Shown here: positions 2,605-3,428 of the stretch, in pieces
Layout: every line of letters begins with the position of its first letter
Position numbering within the stretch: the stretch's first letter is position 1
DNA from: a virus
Lineage: Duplodnaviria > Heunggongvirae > Uroviricota > Caudoviricetes
Strand: one strand, 5' to 3'
DNA: 4,900 bases
Virus record (IMG/VR): IMGVR_UViG_2671180846_000008
Made by a program: the position numbers and the translations under genes
Notes under the pieces: model-generated
Told to the model about the DNA's origin: nothing
The model's database searches: none
What the model saw: only the letters and a program-made list of their open reading frames with translations

Positions 2605-2826
2605 ATGGCAGACATCATTGATTCAGCATCAGAAATTGAAGAATTACAGCGCAACACAGCAATAAAAATGCACCGCCTGAACCACCAGGCTATATCTGCC
2701 ACTCATTGTTGTGAGTGTGGCGATCCGATAGATGAACTAAGACGTCTGGCCGTTCAGGGTTGTCGGACTTGTGCAAGTTGCCAAGAGGATCTGGAGCTTA
2801 TCAGTAAACAGAGAGGTTCGAAGTGA
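2605..2826 (+). CDS. orf73: TraR/DksA-family C4 zinc-finger protein, 73 aa (lambda orf73-like); predicted RNA polymerase-binding transcription modulator
   Basis: Motif C-x2-C-x17-C-x2-C (CCECGDPIDELRRLAVQGCRTCASC) in a 73-aa protein is typical of the TraR/DksA C4 zinc-finger family. Located between the orf61-position ORF and ea22, as in lambda. Stop TGA overlaps the GTG start of ea22. Confidence 0.8.
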   Translation: MADIIDSASEIEELQRNTAIKMHRLNHQAISATHCCECGDPIDELRRLAVQGCRTCASCQEDLELISKQRGSK

Positions 2827-3428
2827 GCGAAATTAACTCTCAGGCACTGCGTGAAGCGGCAGAGCAGGCAATGCATGACGACTGGGGATTTGATGCGGAC
2901 CTTTTCCATGAGCTGGTAACACCATCGATTGTGCTGGCACTGCTGGATGAACGGGAAAGAAACCAGCAATACATCAAACGCCGCGACCAGGAGAACGAGG
3001 AAATTGCGCTAACGGTAGGGAAGCTGCGTGTTGAGCTTGAGGAAGCAAAATCAAAACTCAACGAGCAGCGTGAGTATTACGAAGGTGTTATCTCGGATGG
3101 GAGTAAACGTATTGCTGAACTGGAGAAAAGCGAAGAGCAACTCATTAACGAGCGTGACCATGCTGAGTCTGCTTTAGCTGATATGTACTTCGCAACAACC
3201 GGGGATAGGCCTGAGTGGAGTAACTGTTTCAGTTTTTCAGATGCTGTCGATGCCGTAGTTGACAGAATTGCTGATTTAGAAGCCAAACAGCCATCGCCAG
3301 TAGTACCGGAAGAAAAACCAATGCCTAACCCTCTTAGCATGTACACAGTTGATGCTGTTGCAGCTATTGCAGAGGTGAGAGGCTGGAACGCCTGCCGTGC
3401 AGCCATGCTTAAGGGAGATAAATCATGA
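2823..3428 (+). CDS. ea22: Ea22-like protein, 201 aa, with a coiled-coil central region; GTG start
   Basis: N-terminus MSEINSQALREAAEQAMHDDWGFDADLFHELVTPSIVLALLDERERNQQYIKRRDQENEEIALTVGKLRVELEEAKSKLNEQREYYEGVISDGSKRIAELE recognised as lambda Ea22-like from memory. Heptad-like charged/hydrophobic pattern. The start codon at 2823 is GTG. C-terminal portion not recognised. Confidence 0.8.
   Translation: MSEINSQALREAAEQAMHDDWGFDADLFHELVTPSIVLALLDERERNQQYIKRRDQENEEIALTVGKLRVELEEAKSKLNEQREYYEGVISDGSKRIAELEKSEEQLINERDHAESALADMYFATTGDRPEWSNCFSFSDAVDAVVDRIADLEAKQPSPVVPEEKPMPNPLSMYTVDAVAAIAEVRGWNACRAAMLKGDKS

Follow-up and report, generated by a model that had tools for sequence, protein, structure and literature searches.

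Background

The modular theory of lambdoid phages, with its conserved boundary sequences, is well established. Among the proteins encoded in the exo-xis region, Ea22 is to our knowledge the only one reported to favour lysogeny in lambda and in Shiga-toxin (Stx) phages. In both it is pro-lysogenic, giving more survivors and lysogens and delaying lytic development (PMC7093339). Full-length Ea22 of lambda and of P27 is a tetramer, and its C-terminal domain (CTD) is dimeric; in lambda this dimer domain comprises residues ~112-182 with the order beta1-beta2-alpha1-beta3-beta4-alpha2 (PMC10834534). The Stx-phage variants V1-V3 carry an N-terminal insert of 63 aa that is missing in lambda, and acidic C-terminal regions have been reported for all Ea22 variants (PMC10834534). 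Ea22 proteins have also been described to end in a "+GE" motif, a final K/R-G-E tripeptide (PMC7093339). Published work has already described mosaicism in the C-terminal parts of Ea22 (PMC7093339, PMC10834534, PMC8614690), as well as the relation between 933W, in which Ea22 and a DUF551 protein are split, and phi24B, in which they are fused; the split arrangement of 933W was attributed to an insertion relative to phi24B (PMC8614690).

Here we describe an ea22-like gene in a 4,900-nucleotide stretch of DNA from a Caudoviricetes record, which was analysed as a whole and is referred to below as the window.

An ea22-like gene within a lambda-like exo-xis block

The gene order of the block, gam-bet-exo-orf60a-orf63-orf61-orf73-ea22-...-xis, is the same as in lambda, and the ea22-like gene lies upstream of xis and directly after orf73, which it overlaps. 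The TGA stop codon of orf73 (2824-2826) and the GTG start of the ea22-like gene share the sequence GTGA (2823-2826; ...agagaggttcgaaGTGagc). The features at this end of the gene are as follows.

2605..2826, plus strand: orf73, a 73-aa TraR/DksA-type zinc finger protein (open reading frame; Pfam zf-dskA_traR, E 1.1e-8)
2811..2825, plus strand: Shine-Dalgarno sequence GAGAGG (2811-2816), a 6-nt spacer and the GTG codon (2823-2825), read from the sequence
2823..3428, plus strand: ea22-like open reading frame, 201 aa, GTG start (ORF listing)

Over 2823-3428 the gene is 100% identical at the nucleotide level in ~140 complete E. coli genomes, where it is annotated ead/Ea22-like. The gene is present in prophages of EHEC O26 and O103 strains; the identical copy of E. 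coli O26:H11 str. 11368 encodes WP_012817803.1, and in the identical O26 prophage orf73 is annotated TraR/DksA. RefSeq places the start of WP_012817803.1 at an internal ATG (window 2871), which gives a protein of 185 aa and leaves out the conserved first 16 residues. The GTG at 2823 is the better candidate: lambda ea22 is annotated from the same start, the Pfam model sets in at residue 2, GAGAGG lies 6 nt upstream, and homologues open with MSEINSQALREAAEQ.

A scan of 2400-4000 returned no promoter-like site, and no terminator was found within or after the ea22-like gene, which is consistent with read-through from pL. No RNA family was matched anywhere in the window at E <= 0.1 in Rfam. A minus-strand ORF of 177 aa (3077-3610) was rejected as a gene, as it runs opposite to two coding sequences that are conserved and under selection, and has no support.

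The lambda breakpoint lies inside the gene

Pfam PF13935 (Ead_Ea22) covers residues 2-101 of the protein (model positions 1-139), scoring 102.5 bits where the gathering cut-off is 27. By BLASTP, residues 1-104 share 98/104 identities (94%) with lambda Ea22 (NP_040612.1, 182 aa), with no alignment beyond residue 104; the corresponding DNA identity of 95.7% is confined to nucleotides 1-302 of the gene. Both genes have the same exo-xis position, a GTG overlapping orf73, a short N-terminus and a coiled coil. The preliminary description had called the product an Ea22-family protein, and the Pfam match, the position in the block and the identity to lambda residues 1-104 all bear this out.

2823..3126, plus strand: lambda-derived 5' half, encoding the short lambda-type N-terminal region (aa 1-33) and most of the coiled coil

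In a three-way alignment the last bases in common with lambda lie at approximately window position 3126. The window is collinear with lambda from position 1 to ~3126; homology is then absent until 4135-4213 and 4630-4900 (xis). Since lambda homology ends inside the ea22-like gene, the divergent segment has its left-hand boundary there, as had been suspected from the first reading, and full-length collinear identity to lambda Ea22 was looked for and not found. As judged from the alignments, the lambda 5' half (aa 1-~101) is joined to a different 3' half at the KRIAELE codons (window ~3102-3128). The SKRIAELE junction is also used by P27 and other variants, with at least five different continuations after it. 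The N-terminus is of the lambda type and lacks the Stx-phage insert, which measures about 37-44 residues in alignments with 933W, phi24B, P27 and phiSTEC1575. HM208303 served as comparison sequence in place of NC_027984.1.

Predicted structure of the C-terminal part

The previously quoted C-terminal sequence agrees exactly with the translation of the 201-aa ORF. Residues 105-201 gave no alignment with three Stx C-terminal prototypes (933W-type, phi24B-type with DUF551, and P27-type), which were likewise not among the matches of a tblastn search with the C-terminal 101 aa. The proposal of a swapped C-terminus is therefore upheld, as this part aligns with none of the lambda, 933W, phi24B and P27 Ea22 proteins.

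AlphaFold2, run on a single chain, predicts helices at residues 6-18, 34-126, 137-154 and 171-197, a linker at 155-170, and no beta strands.

2922..3200, plus strand: long predicted helix forming the coiled-coil stalk, aa 34-126 (AlphaFold2, pLDDT 85-98 at residues 40-110)

In the model the stalk helix runs ~25 residues past the lambda breakpoint, so that the break falls inside the helix and not at its end, and hydrophobic heptad-like spacing continues to about residue 127. The C-terminal 75 residues were modelled with pLDDT 39-63, and the linker falls below 50 without secondary structure; given this low confidence, a compact helical bundle is compatible with the model. The predicted C-terminal part is an extension of the coiled-coil helix by ~25 residues followed by two small helical modules with a proline-rich linker between them. 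The alpha/beta CTD of lambda is absent; its place is taken by the lengthened helix, the proline-rich tether and the terminal helix. The net charge of residues 105-201 is -8, in agreement with the acidic C-termini of Ea22 variants (PMC10834534).

No match to residues 105-201 was found in Pfam, NCBIfam, PADLOC or PDB sequences. No PDB chain matched by sequence, the deposited lambda Ea22 CTD included; PADLOC returned nothing, and NCBIfam gave just one coiled-coil match, to an SMC-related model, whose 16.8 bits fall below the cut-off of 300. Foldseek with the full-length model against the PDB retrieved long-helix proteins only (PspA/Vipp1 and the TRIM5alpha coiled coil; best E 2.8). Of the "unrecognised C-terminal domain" of the preliminary description, the first word holds, in that no family covers residues 105-201; the region is better described as several helical parts than as a single globular domain. 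An apparent internal repeat, AVDAVVDRIADL (aa 141-152) and TVDAVAAIAEVR (aa 175-186), was dismissed as a chance likeness, since 458/2000 shuffles scored at least as high as its local alignment (21).

Two modules meet at a proline-rich linker

Comparison of the C-terminal part with its relatives divides it into two modules, termed B and C.

3102..3314, plus strand: module B, aa 94-164, KRIAELEKSEEQLINERDHAESALADMYFATTGDRPEWSNCFSFSDAVDAVVDRIADLEAKQPSPVVPE, which takes in the last part of the long helix, then a loop and helix 137-154
3285..3332, plus strand: proline-rich tether, aa 155-170, QPSPVVPEEKPMPNPL, with 6 prolines (composition; pLDDT below 50)
3291..3416, plus strand: module C, aa 157-198, SPVVPEEKPMPNPLSMYTVDAVAAIAEVRGWNACRAAML, which includes the terminal helix aa 171-197

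Module B is common to Ea22-like proteins with other tails. Protein matches to it stop at residue 163 in ~30 proteins, and matches at the locus level stop at 3310-3314 or at 3289, with at least four different continuations after PVVP(E/D). Module C has the consensus ...PVVPEEKPMPNPLSMYxVDAVAAIAEVRGWNACRAAML and is found in many prophage early proteins that are otherwise unrelated, either as their tail or internally. Its motif of ~40 residues, PVVPEEKPMPNPLSMY-VDAVAAIAEVRGWNACRAAML, present here at residues 159-196, belongs to no curated family. Module C has no Pfam family, and no mention of it was found in the literature searched.

Eighteen columns of module C are invariant across 88 cluster representatives. 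Its Pfam partners among these are DUF551 (31), dATP/dGTP pyrophosphohydrolase (4) and Ead_Ea22 (4), with none in ~47. Module C is often N-terminal to DUF551; 57/88 representatives are without DUF551. Between otherwise unrelated loci its DNA is 90-97% identical, with breakpoints that recur at 3291-3297 and 3410-3416. Synonymous sites vary (pS 0.19) and the peptide hardly does (pN 0.010), 25 DNA variants encoding 7 peptides. In diverged versions GWNACRA(A/T)ML is kept on a different preceding sequence (P0019, and a second copy in P0107). Module C had the lowest pN/pS (0.06), against 0.13 for module B and 0.14 for the coiled coil; all three segments are under purifying selection, which is strongest on module C.

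Protein matches divide at residue ~163 and at residues ~149-154. These module boundaries recur in 86 loci, and 671 cluster representatives divide likewise. On these sequence comparisons, modules B and C recombine independently and meet at the PVVPE linker. The match boundaries of the two overlap at 3291-3297 and 3310-3314, and the ~20-bp overlap of 3291-3314, which module-B and module-C genes have in common, is likely to be the crossover site between them.

The junction with the DUF551 gene

The ea22-like protein ends ...LKGDKS; the final K/R-G-E tripeptide is absent and K-G-D is followed by two further codons. Within these final codons (AAGGGAGATAAATCATGA) lie both the Shine-Dalgarno sequence of the next gene and its start codon, which overlaps the stop.

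3411..3428, plus strand: gene junction, with Shine-Dalgarno AAGGGAG (codons K-G-D), a 7-nt spacer and ATG 3425-3427 over TGA 3426-3428 (sequence)
3414..3548, plus strand: cassette distinguishing the split from the fused form, comprising the last 4 codons, the stop, the start and the 42-aa N-terminal segment MINRTKLEHILEYARQQRRFGQLCKILPGDMVEIVEIAMRKT of the downstream protein (phiSTEC1575 comparison)
3425..3775, plus strand: DUF551 protein gene, 116 aa, putatively translationally coupled (Pfam DUF551, E 2.3e-9, residues 51-109; RefSeq DUF551)

Among related loci the next gene starts -12 to +20 nt from the stop in 69/80, and the last codons contain a Shine-Dalgarno core in 62/80. The Shine-Dalgarno sequence of a coupled next gene accounts for the published and previously unexplained "+GE" motif. 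Lambda Ea22 ends IKGE* without a coupled downstream start, whereas the gene described here ends KGDKS* and overlaps the DUF551 start. Where module C closes a protein with QGKGE or QGKGK, a gene of a different kind follows, so that the link to DUF551 is not obligatory.

Single-ORF fusions of Ea22 and DUF551 were found in phiSTEC1575 gp05, P0013, P0016 and P0017. Phage phiSTEC1575 matches window positions 2929-3413 and 3571-3603 inside one 320-aa ORF, and positions 3414-3570 of the window stand in place of 20 nt of that phage; the fused P0016 and P0017 have a 26-aa linker where the split form has the cassette. An AlphaFold2 model of the natural fusion P0016 (module B/C with DUF551) had a mean pLDDT of 40.6 on an 18-sequence alignment. 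The KGDKS*/MINRTKLEH junction also occurs behind other N-termini (L057-L059; P0055, P0057, P0065 and P0079).

Comparison with other Ea22 and Eaa-like proteins

One close relative is phiSTEC1575-Stx2k gp05 (WCJ00126.1, 320 aa), in which the coiled coil and modules B and C are ~94% identical in DNA (2929-3413) and are followed by DUF551. This protein and the phi24B-type "Ea22 V2" fusions have the Stx-type N-terminal insert and an in-frame DUF551, whereas the locus described here has a lambda-type N-terminus and a separate DUF551 ORF; Ea22 of phi24B itself is without modules B and C. The split arrangement resembles that of 933W, with Ea22 (NP_049469.1) and the DUF551 protein L0065 (NP_049465.1). 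Ea22 of 933W differs, however, in its long N-terminus, its coiled-coil middle and a C-terminal region ending AAGIRIKRGE, and its DUF551 gene lies four genes downstream.

The Eaa-like/DUF551 proteins of HK022, Ss-VASD/POCJ13 ("EaA"), Sf6 (gp21) and Salmonella ("Eaa protein") contain the same PVVPEEKPMPNPLSMYAVDAVAAIAEVRGWNACRAAML cassette at 80-95% identity, often with a KGDKS or QGKGE end and a coupled downstream start, as here. Their N-termini (MTTITRE...ARIALASLEA...) are unrelated to Ea22.

Discussion

With good though not full confidence, the gene can be assigned to the lambda Ea22 family as a recombinant member; its product belongs to the accessory proteins that a lambdoid prophage makes early, from pL, and we infer for it oligomeric display of its tail and a role in lysogeny. 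By analogy with lambda Ea22, and given 94% identity in the stalk, the lambda-type stalk would still oligomerise. The oligomer could then present the terminal helix, acidic and tethered, in several copies to which a partner might dock; candidates for this partner are the co-translated DUF551 protein and a host factor. An oligomer presenting such a helix would therefore modulate the lysis-lysogeny decision as Ea22 of lambda and of Stx phages does. The activity of lambda Ea22 may, however, reside in the CTD, which is absent here. The mosaic would have formed through homologous recombination at short conserved linkers, a type of exchange reportedly promoted by Red-type recombinases (PMC3945230) and in keeping with the modular theory of lambdoid phages.

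Relatives in which a single continuous ORF encodes an Ea22 N-terminus, module C and a DUF551 domain nearly identical to the downstream ORF, together with the replacement of 20 nt of phiSTEC1575 by 3414-3570, could also indicate a decaying remnant, in which a foreign cassette broke an ancestral Ea22-DUF551 fusion and left a truncated, functionless product of 201 aa. This is improbable. The split form has a well-placed Shine-Dalgarno sequence and an ATGA overlap in place of a random stop; the KGDKS*/MINRTKLEH junction recurs behind other N-terminal modules, which marks it as a circulating, functional junction cassette; and proteins that stop right after module C are common. The gene is moreover intact and 100% identical in ~140 genomes, with pN/pS of 0.06-0.14 in all segments. 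Purifying selection on residues 105-201, and the lack of any Pfam, NCBIfam, PADLOC or PDB match there, would also suit one new compact globular domain with its own function, the swap having exchanged effector domains; the low pLDDT might then stem from a shallow, low-diversity alignment and not from disorder. Such a domain is nevertheless a poor candidate, as modules B and C occur far more often apart than together and have a 16-residue linker containing 6 prolines between them. The model is all-helical, the first 22 residues of 105-201 belong to the stalk helix, and the best Foldseek E value was 2.8.

It is highly improbable that the conserved C-terminal stretch matters as DNA only, as a linker or boundary for recombination with an irrelevant peptide. 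Conserved boundary sequences are an established lambdoid idea, and both the recurrence of breakpoints at the two ends of module C (3291-3297 and 3410-3416) and the 90-97% DNA identity in otherwise unrelated loci accord with it. Synonymous sites are nevertheless free to vary (pS 0.19) while the peptide is nearly fixed (pN 0.010, ratio 0.06), so that 25 DNA variants yield 7 peptides, and the diverged P0019 and the second copy in P0107 retain GWNACRA(A/T)ML. Nor does the stretch match an Rfam family.

As a recombinant Ea22, the gene adds a member to a known and published mosaic family and is a case of ordinary lambdoid mosaicism; it is already annotated in public E. coli genomes, and the general picture of such mosaicism is unchanged. 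The mosaic boundaries in this exo-xis region fall inside genes, at short conserved linkers. Because the lambda stalk is kept and the lambda CTD is missing, this natural chimera is already suited to testing which half of Ea22 is pro-lysogenic.

A wider role for module C can be proposed tentatively. The ~40-residue segment might be a portable docking module, attached through a proline-rich tether, that brings many prophage early proteins to one common host or phage hub, a reading which we consider possible but rather unlikely, and which draws on the promiscuity of the cassette, on its near-invariant peptide against drifting synonymous sites (pN/pS 0.06) and on its lack of a Pfam family. Its carriers are Ea22 stalks, Eaa-like proteins, DUF551 proteins and MazZ-like pyrophosphohydrolases, carried by lambdoid and P22-like prophages, and the Ea22 variant described here would be a tetravalent presenter of module C. 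A scan of genome contigs for module C confirmed at least two loci, one of them in a contig assigned to a Segatella copri MAG, which is probably mis-binned enterobacterial phage DNA.

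Gene order and identity of the ea22-like gene

Read along the direction of transcription, the window is the early-left (pL) region of a lambdoid prophage. In E. coli O26:H11 str. 11368, a prophage adjoining yfaA and gyrA matches it at 99-99.8% identity.

Genes in the window
30-326, gam
332-1117, bet
1114-1791, exo
between exo and orf61, orf60a and orf63
2225-2506, orf61
2605-2826, orf73/TraR-like
2823-3428 (+), ea22-like focal gene, 201 aa, GTG start
3425-3775, DUF551 gene, 116 aa
downstream of the DUF551 gene, DUF4222 gene
4211-4555, 114-aa ORF between the DUF4222 gene and xis
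4661-4879, xis

The ORF listing agreed with the preliminary description in giving a 201-aa protein from GTG with the quoted C-terminal sequence. Its first half had been assigned to lambda Ea22, stated to be 182 aa; the lambda record gives 182 aa, and BLASTP found 98 of 104 identities over residues 1-104. Pfam Ead_Ea22 spans residues 2-101 (102.5 bits, cut-off 27). Beyond residue 104 BLASTP gave no alignment with lambda Ea22, no Pfam family covers the residues after 101, and a PDB sequence search matched no chain, though lambda's C-terminal domain is deposited.

RefSeq WP_012817803.1, the product of an identical gene, begins at ATG (2871) and has 185 aa. The GTG at 2823 is more likely to be the start, because lambda ea22 is annotated from the same codon, the Pfam model starts at residue 2, homologues start with MSEINSQALREAAEQ, and the GTG lies 6 nt downstream of GAGAGG and overlaps the orf73 TGA (GTGA). 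It restores 16 conserved residues that the RefSeq model lacks.

Breakpoint with lambda

By blastn, the window is collinear with lambda over 1-2064 and 2115-3135; past 3135, lambda matches only at 4135-4213 and 4630-4900 (xis). A three-way DNA alignment placed the last shared bases at ~3126, in the KRIAELE codons. The gene thus holds the left-hand edge of the lambda-divergent segment, as had been proposed. At least five continuations follow SKRIAELE among the collected loci: those of the focal gene, lambda and P27, and two others.

A further Ea22 variant, in which SKRIAELE is followed by AREIKPAKGEVLVVVSGFTGCGKSAIAGEIEIAMKAIGVPVKWTNGDAEKRMTGADWLTAIEMYKPTVRIVEVNVPRAAGIRIKGE, was located in ORFs containing a match to window ~2931-3124 (loci L058, L062, L063, L069, L070 and L076). 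This continuation forms a small domain bearing a Walker-A-like GxxGxGKS motif, and the variant falls outside the published V1-V3, whose prototypes are 933W, phi24B and P27.

Composition of the C-terminal part

Residues 101-201 were searched against 5.8 billion proteins, and the 735 matches fell into two groups, one reaching residue ~163 and the other beginning at residue ~149-154. The first comprises Ea22-like proteins with other short tails after ...DLEAKQPSPVVP(E/D), including GLVKAVRFYEQ...IKGE and NASGSLAYAYKEL...QGKGE. Proteins of the second have unrelated N-termini (MTTITRE...ARIALASLEA...) and only PVVPEEKPMPNPLSMYAVDAVAAIAEVRGWNACRAAML in common. The same two-way split was obtained with phmmer against 1.84 billion cluster representatives (671 matches). 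The two parts are called module B (residues ~94-164) and module C, a cassette of tether and terminal helix (~157-198). Pfam partners among 88 cassette-bearing representatives were DUF551 (31), dATP/dGTP pyrophosphohydrolase (4), Ead_Ea22 (4), DUF3850 (1) and ASCH (1), the remainder having no Pfam domain; 18 cassette columns are invariant across the 88.

When window 2501-4300 was compared with 86 loci by blastn, boundaries recurred at 2871/2931, 3040-3050, 3102-3128, 3289, 3291-3297, 3310-3314, 3410-3416, 3546-3603, 3723-3766 and 4085-4213. The ~20 bp at 3291-3314 (codons SPVVPEE) is present in both groups and is therefore the likely crossover site between modules B and C. The preliminary description had envisaged an unrecognised C-terminal domain gained by a swap. 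The swap and the divergence from lambda stand, but these alignments indicate a mosaic in its own right, made of separately occurring parts, rather than one domain.

In P0107, a 173-aa Klebsiella pneumoniae protein, the tether-plus-helix unit occurs twice in tandem, PVVPEEKPIPNTLSMYAVDAVAAIAEVKGWNACRAAML then PVVPDEKDKTVDADDHPLLWSFNEGWNACRAAML. The second copy retains only PVVP and GWNACRAAML, suggesting that these two motifs form the cassette core.

In an AlphaFold2 model (42-sequence alignment, mean pLDDT 74) no beta strands were found over the full 201 aa.

Predicted segments of the focal protein (AlphaFold2)
6-18, helix
34-126, long helix, pLDDT 85-98 over 40-110
127-136, loop
137-154, helix, block means about 52-63
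155-170, linker, pLDDT below 50
171-197, helix, block means about 49-57

Since the predicted helix 34-126 spans residue ~102, the lambda break falls, in the model, within the coiled-coil stalk, which extends ~25 residues past it with heptad-like spacing. Of the 16 linker residues 6 are proline, and the net charge over residues 105-201 is -8. The best Foldseek hit against the PDB had E = 2.8. As modelled, the C-terminal part is unlike lambda's compact alpha/beta domain (PMC10834534).

Selection on the modules

All three modules are under purifying selection, as calculated by the Nei-Gojobori method on ungapped homologous segments from the collected loci.

Polymorphism by module
coiled coil: pS 0.197, pN 0.027, pN/pS 0.14
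module B: pS 0.262, pN 0.035, pN/pS 0.13
module C: pS 0.186, pN 0.010, pN/pS 0.06

Given the low ratio of module C and the 7 peptides encoded by its 25 distinct DNA sequences, the tail is maintained as a peptide and not just as DNA helping recombination.

Junction with the DUF551 gene

The focal gene ends AAG GGA GAT AAA TCA TGA. AAGGGAG lies 7 nt upstream of the ATG of the DUF551 gene, which overlaps the stop (ATGA). In phiSTEC1575-Stx2k, by comparison, coiled coil, module B, module C and DUF551 form one 320-aa ORF. Three homologous proteins (P0013, P0016, P0017) are similar fusions, with a DUF551 part nearly identical to the window's downstream ORF. The split and fused forms differ by a cassette at ~3414-3548 that supplies stop and start codons together with an N-terminal segment of 42 residues, and the KGDKS*/MINRTKLEH junction is also found behind other N-terminal modules. 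A split-versus-fused relation was already reported for 933W and phi24B (PMC8614690).

All Ea22 proteins were reported to end in K/R-G-E, the +GE motif, whose significance was called unknown (PMC7093339). In a set of 80 related IMG/VR loci, the genes typically end AAAGGAGAG-TGA-nATG; 69 have a new ORF beginning within -12 to +20 nt of the stop, and 62 have a Shine-Dalgarno (SD) core in the last codons.

+GE/SD sites
window, 3411-3428
collected loci L005-L084
locus L001, 3535-3560
locus L004, 4103-4120 (minus strand)

The 933W Ea22 gene ends AGAGGTGAGTAATG, and an unannotated 52-codon ORF, read from the sequence, starts at TAATG. In lambda CGG, not G..., comes after the same AAAGGAGAGTGAGAT, so that the SD and stop are kept and the coupled ATG is lost. 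Read most simply, the +GE motif is the ribosome-binding site of the next, translationally coupled gene.

A ~55-nt stretch within the DUF551 gene (3546-3603) encodes GNSPVSPGGWISCSERMP, the linker into DUF551. No other fragment of the region is shared so widely: most of the 86 loci have it at 90-96% identity, whatever their flanking sequence. It appears to be another recurrent intragenic recombination junction.

Relation to published variants and proposed working

Ea22 proteins of EHEC/Stx phages have been sorted into V1-V3, each with its own C-terminal region and all with a 63-aa N-terminal segment missing from lambda (PMC10834534). The focal protein has no such segment, and its C-terminal part does not align with 933W, phi24B or P27 Ea22. 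Judged by sequence, it is therefore a further combination, in which a head and stalk of lambda type are joined to a tail of phiSTEC1575 type that ends before DUF551.

Lambdoid phages are described by a modular theory. The gene is an ordinary, already annotated case of lambdoid mosaicism, and it adds a new member to a family for which C-terminal variability has been published before. The main points made beforehand (Ea22 family, C-terminal swap, breakpoint) were all right, and the identity and architecture given here are very probably correct. The analysis shows family membership and position, the recombinant structure, a helical architecture by prediction, selection acting on each module, and coupling signals at either end of the gene. 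The lambda-type stalk would still oligomerise (lambda Ea22 is a tetramer; PMC10834534), and the oligomer could display the tethered terminal helix in several copies to a partner, which may be the co-translated DUF551 protein. Like other Ea22 proteins, this one may bias the choice between lysis and lysogeny (PMC7093339). Recombination at short conserved linkers may have given rise to the mosaic; Red-type recombinases reportedly allow such exchange (PMC3945230). Taken alone, the functional steps are considerably less certain than the identity and architecture, and perhaps rather doubtful; a role of the ~40-residue cassette as a portable docking module not described before is unlikely.

Distribution and other features of the window

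A phage collection search found no record with the whole gene (best coverage 80%). The whole gene occurs at 100% identity in about 140 complete E. coli genomes, and some part of it in 2786 of 5426 genomes. The C-terminal 101 residues have 100% matches in five IMG/VR contigs, four of which contain the complete 201-aa ORF; the fifth (L009) has DNA homology to the window only from about 2930 onward. A 3.3-kb contig labelled MAG: Segatella copri (L087, JAJXBQ010000292.1) bears an enterobacterial module-C cassette at 82% identity and is probably a mis-binned Enterobacteriaceae prophage fragment.

The 114-aa ORF at 4211-4555, called hypothetical in the O26 annotation, matched no Pfam family; it lies in a portion of the window that lambda lacks. 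Inside orf63, 50 N (2065-2114) are bordered on each side by an identical 27 nt (agaaacagacgaagaatttcatacgtt; window 2038-2141) that is single-copy in both lambda and the O26 prophage. The run looks like a scaffold gap joining contigs with overlapping ends, an assembly artefact and not biology. Between orf61 and orf73, a terminator-like hairpin (2527-2555, + strand; 8-bp stem, 4 GC pairs) is followed by TTTTATTGTT. The scanned region holds no more hairpins of this kind than chance predicts, and read-through would be expected under N antitermination.
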